A stretch of 46,301 nucleotides of DNA. Origin: a virus. Of the stretch, positions 2,413-42,199 are shown piece after piece. A program made the translations under genes and the position numbers. The stretch covers positions 1-46,301 of IMG/VR virus record IMGVR_UViG_3300045988_085846. One strand, 5' to 3'. Positions within the stretch are counted from its first letter, which is position 1, and each line of letters opens with the position of its first letter. Below the pieces are notes generated by a model. That model saw only the letters and a program-made list of their open reading frames with translations, was not told the origin of the DNA and made no database searches.

Positions 2413-2508
2413 GTTTGATACAAGCGGATAGCTCGACGGGGCGAAAAGTGGACTGCCTTACCATCTTCCGCTTGTTCAAAAAACAAGGCAATTACGAAAG
2501 GCAGTAAT

Positions 2509-3921: not shown

Positions 3922-4075
3922 AATAAAACCCAAATAACCTGAGCCTTTGAGCCAAGAATCAACTAAAACGTTGGTTTTTGGCTTATTTTTTTATCTTTGA
4001 CCGCCCCGACGTCGTAAAACTACGGGCGACAGCGGATGCAACCCGCGTAAATAAGCGTAGTCGTGGGAGAGAACA

Positions 4076-9469: not shown

Positions 9470-12400
9470 ATGGCCGATGGTTCTGTCACCATCGAGATTA
9501 ACGGTGATGCTAGTGAAGTAATAAACTCGTTCAAACAAGTTTCATCTGCTGCCGAAGCATTAGCAAACAGCCTAAAGGGTATCACTGGTTCATTTGAGAC
9601 TGTTTCCAGCGCTTCGCGGGGCATGTCAGAGGGTATTTCTGGTTCCCTTGGGGATATTGATACCTATCTTAATGAAATCGACGCCTCACTGAATGAACTG
9701 AACAACGATCCGTTTTCCACGGCGGCGGATGGTGCCCAAAACCTGGGCAATTCGCTGAACGATATGGATTCTTACTTAGATGATCTTGAATCATCGTTCG
9801 ATGAACTGCGAAACGACCCGTTTAGCACAAACTCGGACGGCGCGGACCATCTACGCGAGGACCTGGACAGGTTGAGTGATTCCGCTGATGATGCCGAGGA
9901 GGACCTGGACAGATTAGGTGATGCTGCCGACGATGCCGGGGACCAGATGGATGAAGCTGGTGGCAGTGCTAGTAAATTCAGCGAGATTTTCAAAGGCACC
10001 TTCATGGGCAATCTCGCTGCCAAGGGCGTCGAGTTGGCCGTTGAAGCCGTTAAAAAACTCGGCGAGGCTATGATCGACGTCGGCAAACAGGCCGTCGAAG
10101 CCTACGCTTCTTACGAGCAGAATGTAGGCGGCATTGATACCCTATTTAAAGAAGCCAGCGGCACGATGCAACAGTACGCTGCTAACGCCTACAAAACAGC
10201 CGGGCTTTCTGCCAACCAGTACATGGAGACGGCTACATCGTTCGCCGCGTCTCTGATTTCTGGTCTGGGCGGTGACGTAAATAAGGCGGCAGAGGTAGCA
10301 AACCGAGCTATCACCGACATGTCGGACAATGCAAACAAGATGGGCACCGACATGCAGAGCATACAGGACGCTTACCAAGGTTTTGCTAAGCAAAACTACA
10401 CGATAAATCTAATGTCCGCCGCATAAGTGATTTTGCGGTGAATGTGCGTGAACGTTAATCAGCGGTGTGGGTGCAAAATACGGCAGGAAATGGCCGTTGA
10501 GATGCACTTGCTAACAGGGGAAGCCTAAACCTAAATGGCATGGTAATCCTGTGCGAAGCCCAGAAATGGGAACGTCAAACGACTATGGGCTTGTCACCCA
10601 GTACGGCAACTATTGATACGTTGTTGGAAGTGCGCACCATCTAAATAAAAAGTCCAACCCTTAATGTAAGCTGGATTTTAGATGAAGATATAGTCTAAAC
10701 CCCTAATAAATATCGGGAAACCGAGGGTGTATTTGGTTAGATAACCTAAAACTGGGTAGACAGTGCCATACCATTGCCCAGTATAAACCCTGTGAAAACG
10801 GTGAAACCCCAAACAGATAATGCTGTGGGCAATACCGTGCGAAACGCTAAATTATAGTGAACGTGTAACGACTATCGAAATGACGGGGAAACCCGGAACA
10901 GAGTAGAGTACGCCCAAGCGGGCGGAAGCGCAGGGGGCCGGAAACGGTCAAGATATAGTCTGACCTGCATGGAAACATGCAGCAGCCGAAAGGCGGGTAC
11001 AGCCTTGCAAACTGTACTGAACTTACTTGTATGGCGGCACACAATCAGAAATGATTCGCCTAATCAATGATTCAGGCGTCCTTGGCGAAAAAATCAGCAG
11101 CCTGGATAATGTGTCATTTGCGACAATGATCGAGGCTATCCACGAGGTACAAAACAACCTAGGAATCACTGGCACCACGGCGAAGGAAGCAGCTACCACC
11201 ATCGAGGGTAGCGTAAGCTCCATGAAGGGTGCCTGGGAAAACTGGCTCGTCGGGCTGGCAAGCCCGGATGCAGACCTTGGTGCTCTTACACAGAACCTAG
11301 TCCAGAGCGTTGTTACAGTCGTTCAAAACGTCGGGCCGACCATCGGACGGATTCTTAGCAATTTGGGAAGCCTCATCCTGGATGGTCTGAGCAATCTATT
11401 TCCTGACGTTGCAGGCTGGATTTCTGGCCCCATTGAAGGTGTGAAATCGGCATTTTCCACATTAGGAGAAGCCATAGGCAAGGTTTTTACACCAGAACGA
11501 ACGGCGGTAATCAGTGAGTTTTTCCAGAAATTTACCGAAATTGCGGCAACGGTAGCTATCACAGCTCTCAGTGCTGCCCTTGAATTTTTGGCAAACGTAA
11601 TTACCGCCGTTGTAACGGTAATTGGTGCGCTGATTACATTTTTCAGCACCACCTTACCCAATGCAATCCAAACGGTAATCACCTGGTTCCAGAATCTACC
11701 GGATGCCATTTTTAACGCACTGACATCGGCAGGGACAGCTATTCGCAACTGGGGCACCTCAGCGAAGGAAGCGCTGGTAAACGCTGTGACCAACGCTATC
11801 AATGCAGTTGTTACATGGTTTTCCGGGCTGGCAAGCAAAATTACCAGTGCTTTAACGGCGGCTGGTGCTGCTATCCGCAACTGGGGCAACAACGTTAAGC
11901 AAACGATGGTGAACGCCGTAACCAATGCGGTTAATGCGGTGGTTACGTGGTTCCAGAATCTCGCTGGTAAAATCACCGGCGCACTGACTGCGGCTGGTGC
12001 TGCTGTTCGCAGCTGGGGATCGCAGATGATAGCCAATATGCGGCAGGCGGCAAGCAATGCTGTCAACGCGGTTATCACCTTCTTCTCGTCCCTTCCCGGC
12101 AAAATCAAAAGCGCTTTAGCAGGCGCTCTTTCCGCCCTGATTAGTTGGGGTTCCCAGATGGCAGCGCAGGCCAGGGCCAAAATGGTGCAGGTTGGCAACA
12201 ACATCAAATCAACGCTTTCTTCGCTGCCTGGACAATTGAAATCCATCGGTGTCAACATCATCCAGGGCTTAATCAATGGTATTTCCAGCAAGATCAGCGC
12301 GGCTATTGGCAAAATCAAAAGCTTTGCCGGGCAAATCAAGGGTGCTTTTACCAGCCTTTTAGGGATTCATTCGCCGTCCAAGGTATTCTACGAATATGGT

Positions 12401-13567
12401 GAAAATATCGTTCAGGGCCTTGCAAACGGAATAAACCAAGCGTTAAATCTGGCTCGACGTGCTGCATCCAACGTGGCGGATGTTGTGACGAAAGAAGTCG
12501 AAAAACTAAACGCCGAAATTGAAAAAATTGAAGCGGATGCCAACGAACGCGCCGCCGCCAAGGAATTAGCGGAATACAAGAAAAGCCTCAAGGAAAAAAA
12601 TGACGAACTTGCCAAAGCTGCCAAAAAAGACCAAGCCAAGATTCAGGAAGAAATCGCCAAACTAAATGAAGATTGGAATGAAAAGCAGCTTCAAAAGCAA
12701 GAAACAGCCCAGAAGGAAGCTCTTAAATCCCAAATTACAGCGCTGGAAAAGCTGAAAAGCGAGTACGACAAGCGAGTTGATGAAATCGAGAAGCAAATTG
12801 AACAGATGGAGAACGAACGCGACAGCTTTGGCAAAAAACTAGCTGACGTTGAATTGTTCACAGAGGAAGATGATTTCTTCCAACTGACCAATTTGCAAAA
12901 AAGTATCGACGCAATCAACAAGTACGGAGATACAGTGGAAGCCCTTAGGGAACGTGGAATCGGCGATGACCTGATGGATGAAATCCTTGGGATGGATCAG
13001 GAAAAGGCCCAAAAATACATGGATGCTCTCTTGAAAATGGGTGATGAGCAGTGGGAAAACTACCTTGCCCTGTGGAATGAAAAGCAAGAGGCATCTAAAC
13101 GTGTTGCGGCCAATGTGTACGGCAATATCGAACTAATCAGCGATAGCCTTTGGGATGAATTGCGCGACGAATTTGGAGATGTTGGCCTTGAATCTATGGA
13201 AAACTTCGCCGATGGCCTGGAAGACGGCGGAGATCAAGCTGTGGAGCAGGCCCAGGAAATTGTTAAGGACATTCAAGCCGAGCTGGACAAAATTGGAGCA
13301 GAGGATGTTGTTATCCGTGTGGTATACGACGAAGCAAACCGAAATTCTTGGGAATTGACCGAATCCAGCAACAACAAGAACGACAAGGTTTCTGTTGAAC
13401 GTGGTACCGACTATAACGACCTAATAAATGCTATCAGGCTGGCAAATGGCGCAGAGTACAACAACAAGGAAATCGTGCTGAACCTGAACGGCAGAGAGGT
13501 TGCCCGCGGCCTGATTGATGATATCCGGGCTGTGGAAGACCAAAGCCCACGCATTGTAAGCGATTAA
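9470..13567 (+). CDS. tail tape measure protein, three exons: 9470-10404, 10736-10757, 11030-13567 (1164 aa after splicing)
   Basis: ORFs 9470-10426 and 11027-13567 carry the two halves of the TMP core; joining the exons gives ...FAKQNYT-MLDNLKLG-YGGTQSEMIRL...EAIHEVQNNLGITGTTAKEA..., the conserved TP901-type core motif. Confidence 0.85.
10405..10735 (+). ncRNA. group I intron 1 in the tape measure gene (331 nt, no ORF)
   Basis: 5' exon ends in U (10404), intron ends in G (10735); P7-type strands aacgactat (10578-10586) and agatatagtct (10686-10696); P4/P6-like ctaacaggggaagcc...aatcctgtgc; P1 only weakly identifiable. Confidence 0.7.
10736..10757 (+). CDS. 22-nt micro-exon of the tape measure gene (g tta gat aac cta aaa ctg ggt = (M)LDNLKLG)
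   Basis: Completes codon at|g = Met with exon 1 and joins in frame to tat ggc ggc (YGG) at 11030; encodes exactly the missing conserved residues. Confidence 0.8.
10758..11029 (+). ncRNA. group I intron 2 in the tape measure gene (272 nt, no ORF; T4 td/IA2-like 3' core)
   Basis: IGS gcccagt (10776-10782) pairs with the last 7 nt of the micro-exon actgggt (G-U at the splice site); gccata (10765-10770) pairs with tatggc of exon 3 (P10); aacgactat 10867-10875 and agatatagtct 10951-10961; GAAA-capped hairpin 10965-10982; terminal G 11029. Confidence 0.85.
11660..12170 (+). repeat. about four tandem ~37-aa repeats inside the tape measure protein
   Basis: NA(V/I)xxV(V/I)TWFxxLxxKITxALTAAGAA(I/V)RxWG repeated in the translation; usual TMP length-ruler repeats. 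Confidence 0.7.
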
Positions 13568-16156: not shown

Positions 16157-16672
16157 ATGGGTGTAAAGTATTCCTCAATTACAGAAAACGGTAGTGTTAT
16201 CGACGCCCTAATCACGGATCGCACAGCGTCGGATGTTTCCGAAGCCGTTAGTTTGGCCCAGAAAATCAGCACCGGAAACGCAACGGAAGCGGAAATTACC
16301 GAGTTTCTGACCGTGATGAAGGGGAGTTACAACTATACAGATATGAATCGTGTCGGCCAGGCAGTGGCTTACCTCCGGGACAGATTGCGGGATGATGCAG
16401 GTACCTCTGTTGAGGTAGCCCCTAAAACAGACTGGGCCAATGGCGATATCCCAACCCCGGAGCAGGCGGCGCAGTATATCAGCGATGTAAAAAACATCCG
16501 TGCGGCGTTCATCCTGCCGGAGAACACACCACCGGCTCCCGAATCCCTGTCCAACCTAACCTATTCCCAGGCGAACGATATCGAAACGATATTCCAAAAC
16601 CTGGACAAAACAATCGAATCGCTGAAAATCACACTGATAACCAGTGGTGAAGTTTTCAGCGGGGAGGTGTAA
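16157..16672 (+). CDS. tail fibre-associated protein (hypothetical)
   Basis: 171 aa from ATG 16157; synteny between the tail tip and fibre genes. Confidence 0.45.
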   Translation: MGVKYSSITENGSVIDALITDRTASDVSEAVSLAQKISTGNATEAEITEFLTVMKGSYNYTDMNRVGQAVAYLRDRLRDDAGTSVEVAPKTDWANGDIPTPEQAAQYISDVKNIRAAFILPENTPPAPESLSNLTYSQANDIETIFQNLDKTIESLKITLITSGEVFSGEV

Positions 16673-16673
16673 C

Positions 16674-18119
16674 ATGATTGATTCTGTATTAAAGGGGACT
16701 GGTAACAGCCGATTTCTGAAAAGCGCAGTACCCGCCGGAACTAGCTGGGCAGATGCCCTGGCAATGCTCCAGGCCGGTACATTCCCCATTGATTTCAATG
16801 GTATCAACACCGAAGGGTTCCAACAGGTAGGAACGCCTCTGAACAAGGCCAACCTGTTAAAAGACGCAACCGCCGCTCAGATCGGCCTCCCCCCCTCCAC
16901 CACCCCCGACGGCATGTTTCAGGCGTTGGGGAATACGGGGGAGTTGCATGTTTGGAGGAAGACGGTGAAGAACGCGGCGGATGTACCGGCGGGGTATACG
17001 CTTGGCGAAGTGCAGAACGTAACTAAATATCCTATCACAGATATTAGATATTCCGATCCCAACCATGTTGTAAAGGCGTATAGTAAAGTTAACGTTGATG
17101 ATTCTGGTAACGTAACTGTCGATGAATCTGATTATGTGAATTTTTACAAGGATTATGATTGCACTACAATGCTTGGGAAGTTCATACAGGTGTATTCGAG
17201 TGATCCTATTCTGTTCATTCCGTCCGATGCTACTGTCACGTTTGACTCGGAACAGGTCGGGTCCGGTTTTGTTCAGAATTATTACACGAACAAATACCAG
17301 ATTGTCACCGGCTACCCCCTAACCCCCGCCGGAACAACCACCACCTACCCTGTCTCAACCAACCCCAATGCGTATCAAGAGGGCGATGATGCGAAGGCGG
17401 CGGGGTATACGTTGGGGGAGGTGGTGACTGGGGATTTCATCCTCGGACAGGCTAATGCTTCTGATGCGTATCTATTTTATAAATCTTCTTCACCAACTGT
17501 TTCTGACGATGGAACCATCGAATTTGACAAAAGCAATTATATCCAAATTGGATATGCTGTAAATTGGACGACATCCGTATTACAAGAGACTATTCGCGGG
17601 CAATTTTTGCAACGCGGAAACTATATGAACGTACTGCCTAGTTACGTCCCCGCTGGTACGATATATATTCCCAATGACGCCGTTGTTACGCGGTCTAACG
17701 ACAATTACATCGTCTCCAAATACCAACCCGTCACCGGCTACGCCGCTATCCCAGCTGGAACCACTATCGAATACCTGGGAAAGCTGGGGGATAAAGCGAG
17801 GGTGCAGATGGTCTCCTATGTCGGTACTGGTACCTATGGGAGCAGTAACCCGAACTCGCTGACGTTTGATTTCGCGCCGAAGTTGGTGATTGTTGCATTA
17901 TCAAAAGATAAAGACAACAATCCTAATGTCATTCCGGAGCCATATGAAGGATGGAGGAATATGTTCTTGTGGATATACGGAATGAAAGTTACGGGCACTT
18001 CTAGTGCAGATATTTATTTTATCAATGATGGAAAAAATTTTTCGTGGTACGCTACTAATTATGCTAGTAATCAATGTAACGAATCCGGATCGAAATACAC
18101 CGCCATTGCTATCGGCTAA
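16674..18119 (+). CDS. tail fibre / receptor-binding protein with an internal duplication
   Basis: 481 aa from ATG 16674 (SD ggggagg); AGYTLGEV and YQ(I/P)VTGY...PAGTT motifs each occur twice. Confidence 0.55.
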   Translation: MIDSVLKGTGNSRFLKSAVPAGTSWADALAMLQAGTFPIDFNGINTEGFQQVGTPLNKANLLKDATAAQIGLPPSTTPDGMFQALGNTGELHVWRKTVKNAADVPAGYTLGEVQNVTKYPITDIRYSDPNHVVKAYSKVNVDDSGNVTVDESDYVNFYKDYDCTTMLGKFIQVYSSDPILFIPSDATVTFDSEQVGSGFVQNYYTNKYQIVTGYPLTPAGTTTTYPVSTNPNAYQEGDDAKAAGYTLGEVVTGDFILGQANASDAYLFYKSSSPTVSDDGTIEFDKSNYIQIGYAVNWTTSVLQETIRGQFLQRGNYMNVLPSYVPAGTIYIPNDAVVTRSNDNYIVSKYQPVTGYAAIPAGTTIEYLGKLGDKARVQMVSYVGTGTYGSSNPNSLTFDFAPKLVIVALSKDKDNNPNVIPEPYEGWRNMFLWIYGMKVTGTSSADIYFINDGKNFSWYATNYASNQCNESGSKYTAIAIG

Positions 18120-21677: not shown

Positions 21678-22002
21678 GGCAAAAATCCTGCCGCACCAAG
21701 CGCACCAGCATGAGGCGTACATATTCCGGGGCGTTGCTGGCTCCACTTTCCCAGTTTTGGACGGTCCGGGGTGGGATACCGTACCAGGCGGCAAATCTGG
21801 ACTGTGTCAGGCCGGTCATGGCCCGGAGTTCTGCAACGCTCTTTCGGACGTCTTCCCAGAGCTTGGCCAGGTATTGCACCCGGTCTACCGGGATTGGGGC
21901 GGTGGGTTCGTCTCCCCAGATGTTGGAAAGCGCCCAGTCGGAGACGAAAGCATCTCTGTCGGTGGTAGAGATGGCGTCCTGGATCAACATTTGTTCGTTC
22001 AT
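21670..22002 (-). CDS. XRE-family HTH protein
   Basis: 110 aa from the ATG overlapping the upstream stop (TAATG); LRAMTGLTQSRFAAWYGIPPRTVQNWESGASNAPEYVRLML. Confidence 0.6.
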   Translation of the reverse strand: MNEQMLIQDAISTTDRDAFVSDWALSNIWGDEPTAPIPVDRVQYLAKLWEDVRKSVAELRAMTGLTQSRFAAWYGIPPRTVQNWESGASNAPEYVRLMLVRLVRQDFCHG

Positions 22003-23009
22003 TACTTTTCTTCCTTTCTCATTTTCACGGGATAGATAACAACGGTATCCTGTGTTTTGTTTTTTAGGTTGATAAACGTGGGAGCGACCCATTTCAGGAT
22101 CAGTTTCCGATCTCCGTCCCGTGGCCCAGTCCAGAAATGGTGCCAATGCCCGCGGCGGGAGTGTGGGGATTTTTTGGAGCCTGTGCCGGGTTCCGTCTCC
22201 GCGCTAGGGGATGGCTTGGCTTTGATTTTTCGGATCGCCGCACCGATGCGGAGACCGACGTTCTTCACCTTCACGCTGCTTTTCTTTTTCTTCCCCTTCT
22301 GGGATTTCTGGGTGTTGTCCAGTTCGGGGGCTGGGCCGCTGGTGATCTCTGCGTTTTCGGATAGCAGGTATAGTATCCACTGAATCGCTTGCAGGTGCAT
22401 GATCCAATTCTCTTTTTCTTCATGCCTGCCCTTCGTTTCCATGGTATCCATAGTATCTACTATACATTCCCAGATTGTTTTTTCAGGCTGCAATTTCAGA
22501 AAACAATCAAATATAGCGGTGTCCCCCTGTTTCACGCCCACGAAATGTATCACGGTGTTTTTGGTTTCTGTGTTGTAGTCCACAAATGCAAATAAACCGT
22601 CGATAATATATTTATCCGTAGGCCCTGCCGTTTTCATGTAAATGCAGGGGTACGGGAGATTTAACAGCATTTCAACCGGCAAGAGATCGGATTCGTCCAT
22701 TTCCTCCGCCTGTTGCATCAGCAGTCTGGCCAGGTCTGGATCGAACTGATACATGACCTTTGTTTTCGACCACGCCCAGCACGCCGTTGTTACGCTGACA
22801 AATCCATTTCTGGAGAATGCGTCGAAACTATCCCATTCGTTGGAAATGAGTCTTACTTCGTCCACCGCTATATTTAGCGGGAGTGGACAGTAGTCTGGCC
22901 AATTAGATTCCCCAGAAATTTTCCGGGCTGCGAGATCATCCAATCGGTCATAAACATTCCCAATCGACCACTGCCGGACAAACGGCATTGGCGTGTCTTT
23001 TTCTTTCAT
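22002..23009 (-). CDS. hypothetical 335-aa protein with a basic C-terminal RRGHWHHFW motif
   Basis: SD aggagg 5 nt upstream; lysine-rich linker (KSQKGKKKKSSVKVK) then SPHSRRGHWHHFWTGPRDGDRKLILKWVAPTFIN; no family recognised. Confidence 0.6.
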   Translation of the reverse strand: MKEKDTPMPFVRQWSIGNVYDRLDDLAARKISGESNWPDYCPLPLNIAVDEVRLISNEWDSFDAFSRNGFVSVTTACWAWSKTKVMYQFDPDLARLLMQQAEEMDESDLLPVEMLLNLPYPCIYMKTAGPTDKYIIDGLFAFVDYNTETKNTVIHFVGVKQGDTAIFDCFLKLQPEKTIWECIVDTMDTMETKGRHEEKENWIMHLQAIQWILYLLSENAEITSGPAPELDNTQKSQKGKKKKSSVKVKNVGLRIGAAIRKIKAKPSPSAETEPGTGSKKSPHSRRGHWHHFWTGPRDGDRKLILKWVAPTFINLKNKTQDTVVIYPVKMRKEEK

Positions 23010-23082
23010 AAATTCCTCCTATCTTGCGGGGTTGTGACCGCAGGGCTTACGCCCTCCCGCATTACCGGCCCAGTGTGGGCCG

Positions 23083-23469
23083 TCACTCTGCGTTGTATAC
23101 CCCGTATTCTGCGATTTCTTCCGGGTCTGCCTCGTGGACCTGCTCCATCAAGTCCTCAATTTCCAGCCCCCAACCGGCGGCCAGGAATTCCAGTTCTTTT
23201 TTATCGACGCAGATAGGAGACTGACTTCCGAAAAAGGCATCCTCCCGGTCAACGTTGGGGAAATAGTATTCTCTGTCGAGCATGGCCGCGTTGATGTAGC
23301 TGTCGGAGAACTCACTATCCAGCAGGTCCTGGAAGCCGGGATCGAGTTCCAGGTAACGGTCCAGGAATTCTTTTGCGGTGCAGGGGGCGAGTTCTGCGTG
23401 AACCTGCTCTCGAATGTCGTCGTTCATGTAAACGGTGATGGCGTCCCAATATCTGTTCTTCATTTTCAT
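23083..23469 (-). CDS. acidic hypothetical protein
   Basis: 128 aa (or 126 from the second ATG, which has better SD spacing); 31 D/E versus 10 K/R. Confidence 0.55.
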   Translation of the reverse strand: MKMKNRYWDAITVYMNDDIREQVHAELAPCTAKEFLDRYLELDPGFQDLLDSEFSDSYINAAMLDREYYFPNVDREDAFFGSQSPICVDKKELEFLAAGWGLEIEDLMEQVHEADPEEIAEYGVYNAE

Positions 23470-40936: not shown

Positions 40937-42199
40937 ATGATCAAGTTTGAACACACAGAGGTAGTGGGCTGGGAAGCCGCTATCCGGGGGATGAGAAACC
41001 CTCATAACAGCTGGGATAAGTCGGATAGCAAATACCTGCGCCAAGAAGATGGGCATATCATCGCAAGCTGCTACGAAATCGGCCCAAACGACCACGACTT
41101 AATGATGCGCCTGGTGAAAGCTGGCACCGACCACCGCAAATTTATGCGGATGATCGTGGTCTATGTGGATGTTACTGCGCCGCTGTATTGGATTTCTGAA
41201 CTTGATACCTACAAAGTTGGAACCGTCAGGAATAGCTGCAGCTTCATGCACAAAGGCGTATCCAGACCATTTACGATAAGGGACTTCAGTGTATTCGATG
41301 AGCGGATTTACGATGTTCTGTCGAAGCCCGAAAAGACCGTGTACAAAATGACCTATCCGTATGAGACGAGCGACTTCAAACGAGTCGAAATTGAAAACGG
41401 AAGAACATATCGCGTCTACAGAAACGGGCGAGTCGTAAAGGAGAAGTTTGAATACACGGATACATATGGGAGAACAAGACATTTCGAGGAAAAGGAGGTT
41501 TCCGTCTTCCGAAATAAAGGTGGGTATTTCTACATCAGGAAGTCAGGTCGAGGTTCTGGAACCATTCTGCTACACAGGCTTGTTGCCTTTGCATGGCTTG
41601 GAGATGGCGGAAGCAAAATGCAGGTAAACCATAAAAACGGGAACAAAGGAGACAATTCCGTTGAAAACCTGGAATGGGTAACAGCTCGCGAGAACATGCA
41701 ACATGCCATAGGGCACGGGTTATACAAGAACCTGTCAAGTTTGCGTTCAAGATACATCTCGTGGAAAAGCTCTGCGAGTGTGATTCCTGCGAGCAAACGA
41801 ATGGAGTTCTACTCTGACGTTCATTCTGGTTTGCATTACCAGAAGCTCACAGAAAAATACGGGATCACGAAAAGACAGGCGTATAATTCAAAATGGACCA
41901 TGGAACACTCTGAGTACGAAGAACTTTTCCAGATGTGTTATACATGGGAGAGGGTCTTGAATACGATGAACGCTATGCGCGAAGAATACCTAGAGACAAA
42001 GGACCCGAACATATTCCAAGCAATTAGGTGTTTGCTCCCATCAGGATACATGCAGCGTTCTACCTATATGCTAAACTATGAAGTTCTAGCTAACATTTAC
42101 CGTGCTCGGCGCAATCATAAGCTCACCGAGTGGAGGGAGTTCTGCCGCTGGATTGAAACACTCCCGTACTCCGAACTGATAACCGGGGGCGCTGAATAA
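40937..42199 (+). CDS. ThyX-like (Thy1 fold, no RHR motif) protein carrying an in-frame NUMOD4/HNH endonuclease module
   Basis: N-terminus GWEAAIRGMRNPHNSWDKSDS...APLYWISELDTYKVGTVRNSCSFMH and C-terminus LLPSGYMQRSTYMLNYEVLANIYRARRNHKLTEWREFCRWIETLPYSELI flank LLHRLVAFAWLGDGGSKMQVNHKNGNKGDNSVENLEWVTARENMQHA. Confidence 0.65.
   Translation: MIKFEHTEVVGWEAAIRGMRNPHNSWDKSDSKYLRQEDGHIIASCYEIGPNDHDLMMRLVKAGTDHRKFMRMIVVYVDVTAPLYWISELDTYKVGTVRNSCSFMHKGVSRPFTIRDFSVFDERIYDVLSKPEKTVYKMTYPYETSDFKRVEIENGRTYRVYRNGRVVKEKFEYTDTYGRTRHFEEKEVSVFRNKGGYFYIRKSGRGSGTILLHRLVAFAWLGDGGSKMQVNHKNGNKGDNSVENLEWVTARENMQHAIGHGLYKNLSSLRSRYISWKSSASVIPASKRMEFYSDVHSGLHYQKLTEKYGITKRQAYNSKWTMEHSEYEELFQMCYTWERVLNTMNAMREEYLETKDPNIFQAIRCLLPSGYMQRSTYMLNYEVLANIYRARRNHKLTEWREFCRWIETLPYSELITGGAE

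Follow-up and report, generated by a model that had tools for sequence, protein, structure and literature searches.

The stretch of viral DNA analysed here (IMG/VR record IMGVR_UViG_3300045988_085846, 46,301 nucleotides (nt), called the window in its whole length) comes from a temperate siphophage of about 46 kb, probably of human gut origin, and carries on its plus strand an interrupted gene for a tape-measure protein (TMP). The list of open reading frames (ORFs) of the window showed plus-strand ORFs at 9470..10426 (318 amino acid residues, aa) and 11027..13567 (846 aa), the TMP frame being broken after 10404 and taken up again at 11030. The interval 10405–11029 contains 8, 17 and 14 stop codons in the three frames, in agreement with an earlier reading of the letters of this DNA (the sequence-only reading), which had noted a break at 10426/11027 with no ORF in between. 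With high confidence the gene can be described as cut at two neighbouring sites, within its most conserved motif, by two different and unrelated group I introns of the IA type, and these introns very probably are functional and self-splicing, yielding a TMP of 1164 aa.

Joining of 9470–10404, 10736–10757 and 11030–13567 gave on conceptual translation a single ORF of 1164 aa, which at the rebuilt junction region reads QNYTMLDNLKLGYGGT / AKQNYTMLDNLKLGYGGTQSEM / AYQGFAKQNYTMLDNLKLGYGGTQSEMIRL and contains the junction peptide QNYTMLDNLKLGYGGTQSEM. T is the last base of both upstream exons and G the last base of both introns. The spliced junction region was used as a tblastn query against 50,697 phage records, 384 of which matched, and in 74 of them at least 80% of the query was covered in one uninterrupted piece. 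Since the junction is contiguous in these 74 records, the conceptual splice restores a genuine conserved protein segment. The closest TMP was that of Flavonifractor phage Chenonceau (66%, tblastn), and YGGT was found directly 3′ of the intron in all the relatives. An exact-protein lookup with the 846-aa ORF gave no match, and the matches from megablast of positions 1–25000 of the window against the GenBank phages were limited to the intron cores.

Rfam at curated thresholds was run on the whole window. Family RF00028 (gathering score 50 bits) was matched twice, at 10414–10718 (intron 1; 55.8 bits, E 1.3e-11) and at 10748–10982 (intron 2; 61.8 bits, E 2.1e-13), both times over model positions 1–253. 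Both introns showed a U·G wobble at the 5′ splice site (U10404·G10414 and U10757·G10776), a terminal G (G10735 and G11029) together with a P10 pairing to the 3′ exon, and covariation-supported core helices P3–P9 with the P3/P7 pseudoknot; P7 itself is invariant in both introns and thus neutral for structure. In this way the main proposals of the sequence-only reading were confirmed: the 22-nt micro-exon and both junctions by covariance-model matches, by covariation in relatives and by a motif restored as in intron-less homologues, the U before each intron and the G at its end by direct inspection, the group I assignment by scores above the threshold for both halves, and the conservation of the rebuilt protein by the uninterrupted junction in the homologues. 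The P7-type strands that it quoted, aacgactat (10578–86, 10867–75) and agatatagtct (10686–96, 10951–61), and its pairing segments gcccagt (10776–82), gccata (10765–70), tctaa (10408–12) and ttaga (10737–41) are indeed at those positions.

The presence of P7.1 and P7.2 is the mark of subgroup IA. In each intron both helices follow P7 and precede the 3′ strand of P3, and for this reason the two introns were placed in subgroup IA, at the level of IA as a whole (IA1 and IA2 together). Covariation is strong for P7.2 of either intron; for P7.1 it is seen in intron 1, whereas among the aligned relatives of intron 2 this helix is poorly kept, with pairs in 41.7% of the cells. The introns are about 46% identical to each other and only their P7 strands are common, which points to two independent invaders and led us to reject the idea that one is a duplicate of the other. 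The label of twintron (nested introns) was also rejected, the introns standing side by side and parted by a coding stretch of 22 bases required for the protein, as was that of mobile intron (intron plus endonuclease), no Pfam-matching ORF being present in either intron of the window: a Pfam search with the 65-aa and 44-aa minus-strand ORFs of the introns gave no match, and the other ORFs there are only short.

The structure of intron 1 was drawn from the window sequence and RNAalifold (Table 1), with an alignment of 17 non-redundant ORF-less introns from the same site, each with 10 nt of either exon. Standard pairs were present in 95.8% of the cells of this alignment, and 43 of the 86 pairs showed changes on both sides, while in controls with the partners slid by 1–3 columns 32–40% of the cells were paired. 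The covariation score was 0.401 as compared with 0.036–0.073 for the slid controls, and none of 500 shuffles scored as high. Covariation was found in P2, P3, P4–P6, P7.1, P7.2, P8 and P9, whereas P1 and P7 were constant. P3 was 100% paired with three covarying pairs; this pairing is favoured over the placement of P3 by Rfam (10502–08 with 10631–38), which contains mismatches and was rejected. P10 comprises 6 base pairs (bp) and is 90% paired across the relatives, so that the 5-nt P10 of the sequence-only reading stood as a pairing and was extended by one. P1 consists of three pairs (GAU/GUC) plus one A-U. A further helix proposed by RNAalifold between exon 1 (10397–10401) and the end of intron 1 (10727–10731) showed apparent covariation in 12 sequences; with 17 sequences 80% of the cells paired and two positions were often broken, and the helix was dropped.

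For intron 2, 28 introns of its lineage from the same site were aligned. Here 95.1% of the cells were paired (31–45% in the slid controls), 40 of 76 pairs were compensatory, and the covariation score was 0.409 against 0.058–0.081 in the slid controls. Within P1 the exon base 10754, the third position of a Leu codon, covaries with the guide base 10779, the pair being C-G in 20, G-C in seven and A-U in one of the relatives with no mismatch, which substantiates the guide put forward for this intron by the sequence-only reading. P10 was 87.5% paired across the relatives. Intron 2 has neither an ORF nor a P2 helix.

Several observations weigh against this interpretation of the locus. Splicing was inferred from sequence alone. 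P1 of intron 1, with its 3–4 bp, is constant in all the relatives and therefore beyond test by covariation. In the same intron P4 is separated from the 5′ strand of P3 by about 64 nt (10450–10513) that form two hairpins backed by covariation, where the usual group I layout has only the 3-nt J3/4 junction; intron 1 thus departs from the textbook arrangement, and the Rfam model threads its P3 wrongly, with mismatches. In intron 2 the P10 strand adjoining the guide (10771–74) forms only 4 bp in the window, and the perfect 6-bp partner (10765–70) sits 5 nt further upstream. In addition, the order of splicing is uncertain, intron 1 before intron 2 being a guess.

One or both introns might have decayed to a non-splicing state, leaving a TMP pseudogene in a defective prophage or a TMP made as two polypeptides. 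The loss of endonuclease genes from both introns, a step in the decay cycle of mobile introns, and the very short P1 of intron 1 would be compatible with such decay. Against it, all core helices are intact in the sequence of the window itself, near-identical ORF-less copies are kept in several other contigs (L017 and L020 among the loci compared) with both exons open, the phage otherwise appears complete, a portal, a major head protein and an integrase being present, and a TMP cut in its most conserved motif is very likely lethal to tail assembly. We regard decay of this kind as quite improbable, and the preferred reading remains that of two splicing introns.

With two splicing introns, a 22-nt exon would have to be recognised from both ends. 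Its bases 1–6 (GUUAGA) pair with 10408–13 of intron 1 as P10 and its bases 16–22 (ACUGGGU) with the guide of intron 2 as P1, leaving 9 bases free in between. In intron 1 the P10 strand sits immediately 5′ of the P1 strand GUC, the classical arrangement. The 5′ site of intron 1 would be set by the short P1 (GAU|A with U-GUC, including U10404·G10414) and its 3′ site by G10735 and the 6-bp P10 to the first six bases of the micro-exon; the 5′ site of intron 2 would be set by a P1 of 7–9 bp between the last seven bases of the micro-exon and 10776–82 (including U10757·G10776), and its 3′ site by G11029 together with a P10 in which TATGGC of exon 3 takes part. Since the two introns contact separate parts of the micro-exon and do not compete, each ribozyme should be able to act alone, and, as the contacts do not overlap, either order of splicing would be chemically possible. 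Intron 1 would probably be spliced first because it is transcribed first and can fold co-transcriptionally; with intron 1 gone, intron 2 would face an ordinary long 5′ exon, and the spliced messenger RNA would encode the normal 1164-aa TMP.

In the window sequence exon 3 does not begin with a partner for the P10 strand of intron 1 (UCUAAU), nor does exon 1 end with one for the guide of intron 2 (GCCCAGU). Neither guide region fits the exon of the other intron, and exon skipping is therefore not expected. That the pair serves regulation, incomplete splicing or skipping giving N-terminal TMP fragments of 318–339 aa beside the full-length protein, is hardly credible: on conceptual translation skipping would indeed shift the frame and lead to a stop after 319 aa, removal of only intron 1 to a stop after 339 aa, and exon skipping by neighbouring introns is said to have been reported by Landthaler and Shub (1999; cited in PMC11878797) for orf142 of Staphylococcus phage Twort, whereas the two Twort introns concerned (2 and 3) have one P1 (GCAU/GUGC), the guides in the window are unrelated and mismatch the exons that skipping would join, and the many relatives with one intron or none indicate that the TMP family does not require such a device.

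The distribution of the two introns, both of which we take to splice, was followed in related TMP genes. Site A was defined as lying between ACG AT and G TTA (T-M|L) and site B between GGT and TAT (G|Y). Annotated relatives were found by blastn of 10300–11150 and their sites read from their sequences. In Lactococcus phage 38502 site A (NYT-M|LDN) holds an intron of the intron 1 lineage with an HNH gene inside and site B is empty; in Lactococcus phage r1t and Streptococcus phage MissG1 site A is empty and site B (LDNLKLG|YGGT) holds an intron of the intron 2 lineage, with the HNH gene ORF41 in r1t, whose interrupted gene spans ORF40-41-42, and without endonuclease in MissG1, where it is annotated as a non-coding RNA (Rfam 69.4 bits). 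These three phages thus share the TMP family with the window and differ from it in having a single site filled. The TMP gene of Streptococcus phage Javan271 (MK448723) has an architecture identical to that of the window, intron 1, a 22-nt micro-exon (GTTAGATAACTTAAAACTGGGT, one base off that of the window) and intron 2, and differs in an intron 1 of 893 nt with a sense-strand HNH endonuclease gene.

Pattern scans of IMG/VR gave 21 contigs with both sites filled, 99 with site A only (GATATAGTC, a P7 motif, standing just upstream in all 99), at least 120 with site B only and at least 120 with neither. The double pattern was also present in 17 metagenome contigs, several from human gut and some identical with IMG/VR contigs, and, among representative genomes, in one Clostridium metagenome-assembled genome. 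In 22 other doubly interrupted alleles the 22-nt exon encodes LDNLKLG with synonymous differences only.

A second intron lineage, shorter than the first, was observed at site B, of about 232–243 nt and with the P7 strand GATATGC (L005:6979-7230 on the minus strand, L048, L056, L074 and L120). Its guide and AGTATAAACC are the same as in the lineage of r1t and the window, suggesting that different introns have adapted to a single site.

In the GenBank records of Javan271 (L001), 38502 (L002) and r1t (L004) the interrupted TMP is annotated as two tail proteins and an HNH gene. The Javan271 record leaves the 7-codon micro-exon wholly unannotated and shows the gene as two "minor tail protein" fragments with a homing endonuclease.

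Landthaler and Shub reportedly described, in 1999, three group I introns in orf142 of phage Twort. In the Twort genome (NC_007021) Rfam gave three RF00028 matches within 16606–17506, and orf142 could be rebuilt from exons 16272–16616, 16942–16982, 17235–17257 and 17544–17563 to exactly 142 aa, with exons of 345, 41, 23 and 20 nt and introns of 325, 252 and 286 nt; U ends each 5′ exon and G each intron. As in the window, tandem ORF-less IA-type group I introns separate tiny coding exons in a gene for a virion structural protein, and the exons of 41 and 23 nt provide a precedent for a micro-exon of 22–23 nt between phage group I introns. The Twort introns have P1 helices of 4 bp, short like that of intron 1, and the weak P1 which the sequence-only reading had found there, three pairs and an A-U, is accordingly normal for the class. 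Unlike the window, the Twort gene is not a TMP gene and holds three introns instead of two, and its introns 2 and 3 are near-copies of each other that share one guide, allowing exon skipping, while those of the window are unrelated and have different guides. The same reading had called the arrangement unusual; this view did not hold, given the same allele in Javan271 and in dozens of metagenomic phage contigs and the Twort precedent. Literature searches found no paper describing the site A/site B micro-exon allele of the TMP gene as such.

The T4 td intron, of subgroup IA2, has P7.1 and P7.2 like intron 2, and differs from it by the presence of P2 and of the GIY-YIG endonuclease I-TevI, intron 2 having no P2 and no ORF. 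The resemblance suggested by the sequence-only reading is real for a 33-nt stretch over P7′–P9 (88% identical) and does not extend to the whole intron (about 47%). In prophages of the Bacillus cereus group, the IA1/IA2 group I introns TMP-IVS1, IVS2 and IVS3 occupy several TMP sites, with up to two introns per gene and many without endonucleases, and through P1 different introns fit one site and related introns fit different sites (Tourasse and Kolsto 2008, PMC2504315). Co-resident introns stand at distant sites in that paper, whose figure leaves out the middle of the gene, and micro-exon spacing is not described there; IVS1 and IVS2 could not be mapped onto sites A and B. Tandem self-splicing introns parted by mini-exons that measure from a single base to a few tens are found in fungal mitochondria (PMC12308204); unlike the present case these are organellar, often group II or nested, and outside phage genes.

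The origin of the ORF-less introns was indicated by close relatives. Two contigs (L044 and L079), which match the window at about 95% identity over exon 1 and its neighbouring genes and at about 90% over the aligned part of exon 3, have site B alone filled, by an intron 97–98% identical to intron 2 plus an insert of about 614 nt; it is the same intron 2, here with an HNH endonuclease gene. Four others (L006, L013, L021 and L025), likewise from phages about 95% identical to that of the window, have both introns, intron 1 being 98–99% identical to that of the window and carrying in the P8 loop a 500-nt insert that encodes, in antisense, a protein of 172 aa in which Pfam recognises NUMOD4 and HNH_3; L017 and L020 are ORF-less like the window. 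Because close relatives carry versions with endonuclease, the introns of the window are deletion derivatives of mobile introns. The absence of a homing endonuclease, which the sequence-only reading took as a peculiarity, is thus correct for both introns and is a derived state. Both introns are, as sequence comparison shows, endonuclease-free, immobile derivatives of introns that home into sites A and B across a large TMP family.

Endonuclease ORFs were present in intron 1 of 74 of 92 alleles with site A only and of five of 21 double alleles, and in intron 2 of 51 of 107 alleles with site B only (among the matches listed) and of one of 22 double alleles; in the sampled alleles (loci L001–L364) both introns of one allele never carried them. 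Fisher tests gave p ~1e-6 for intron 1 and 8e-5 for intron 2, values that ignore relatedness, the contigs representing only about eight lineages. Antisense orientation was seen in nine of 79 endonuclease ORFs of intron 1 and in one of 52 of intron 2. It is conceivable, if rather doubtful, that the homing endonucleases are lost because both sites are filled, each intron, at a spacing of 22 bp, disrupting the long recognition sequence of the other enzyme. The rarity of endonucleases in double alleles fits this idea and is a lead only. If the idea is true, double alleles would be endonuclease-free dead ends persisting only by clean splicing, or, alternatively, they would spread as a unit by co-conversion from one remaining endonuclease.

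Gene callers split TMP genes of this kind into two proteins and overlook the 7-codon exon, which affects many metagenomic phage contigs, and recognition of sites A and B would repair the annotation of a widespread tail-gene family. The layout reveals no new mechanism and recurs in public data, usually misannotated as a split tail gene. The locus constitutes a compact natural series (empty, one-site and two-site alleles, HNH genes being absent, sense or antisense), partly within a lineage of about 95% identity, on which one could study how introns invade, how their endonucleases decay and how two sites separated by 22 bp undergo co-conversion.

Table 1. Exons, introns and predicted intron helices of the TMP gene, with other elements (positions in the window unless a locus is named).
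Feature	Position	Strand	Description	Basis
TMP exon 1	9470..10404	+	935 nt; ends AAC TAC ACG AT	ORF list, spliced translation, exon ends aligned in 17 relatives
5′ splice site of intron 1	U10404	+	last base of exon 1	spliced translation
Intron 1	10405..10735	+	331 nt; group I, subgroup IA type, no ORF; terminal G10735	
Micro-exon	10736..10757	+	22 nt; G TTA GAT AAC CTA AAA CTG GGT; supplies (M)LDNLKLG	
Intron 2	10758..11029	+	272 nt; group I, subgroup IA type, no ORF; td-like P7–P9; terminal G11029	
TMP exon 3	11030..13567	+	2538 nt with stop codon; starts TAT GGC GGC ACA (YGGT)	
Intron 1 P1	10402-04/10414-16	+		structure drawing
Intron 1 P10	10408-13/10736-41	+		structure drawing
Intron 1 P2	10417-23/10434-40	+		structure drawing, covariation
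Intron 1 P3	10444-49/10632-37	+		structure drawing, covariation
Intron 1 extra hairpin	10453-64	+		structure drawing, covariation
Intron 1 extra hairpin	10467-74/10504-11	+	inner hairpin 10481-96	structure drawing, covariation
Intron 1 P4	10514-19/10547-52	+		structure drawing
Intron 1 P5	10523-25/10542-44	+		structure drawing
Intron 1 P6	10553-55/10573-75 plus 10559-62/10567-70	+		structure drawing
Intron 1 P7	10581-86/10690-95	+		structure drawing
Intron 1 P7.1	10587-99	+		structure drawing
Intron 1 P7.2	10604-26	+		structure drawing
Intron 1 P8	10638-44/10678-84	+		structure drawing
Intron 1 P9	10713-24	+		structure drawing
Intron 2 P1	10751-57/10776-82	+		structure drawing, covariation
Intron 2 P10	10765-70 (or 10771-74)/11030-35	+		structure drawing
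Intron 2 P3	10788-93/10930-35	+		structure drawing
Intron 2 P4	10798-803/10833-38	+		structure drawing
Intron 2 P5	10808-10/10827-29	+		structure drawing
Intron 2 P5a	10813-16/10823-26	+		structure drawing
Intron 2 P6	10839-41/10862-64 plus 10845-49/10855-59	+		structure drawing
Intron 2 P7	10870-75/10955-60	+		structure drawing
Intron 2 P7.1	10884-95	+		structure drawing
Intron 2 P7.2	10911-24	+		structure drawing
Intron 2 P8	10936-49	+		structure drawing
Intron 2 P9	10965-82	+		structure drawing
Intron 2 P9.1	10985-94	+		structure drawing
Intron 2 P9.2	10997-11017	+		structure drawing
Intron 1 with antisense HNH_3+NUMOD4 gene	L013:2951-3801 (minus strand of the locus); also in L006, L021, L025		endonuclease opposite in strand to intron and TMP	
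int-alpA RNA	2421-2488	+		Rfam 58.8 bits, above cut-off
GP20-b RNA	3998-4059	+		Rfam 46.9 bits, above cut-off
Type-P5 twister ribozyme	23026-23092	-		Rfam 53.7 bits, cut-off 37.6
HNH endonuclease domain ORF	40937-42199	+	420 aa, free-standing	PHROG 59 and others
DUF3800-VII RNA	43841-43918	+		Rfam 39.2 bits, above cut-off
tRNA-Ser	44073-44162	+	anticodon GCT	

Elsewhere in the window, the 420-aa ORF with an HNH endonuclease domain lies outside any intron, close to the likely packaging genes, and the GP20-b RNA match just upstream of the head genes. The tRNA-Ser gene follows the DUF3800-VII RNA match at a distance of about 150 nt, and the twister match was placed between the minus-strand ORFs 22002–23009 and 23083–23469.

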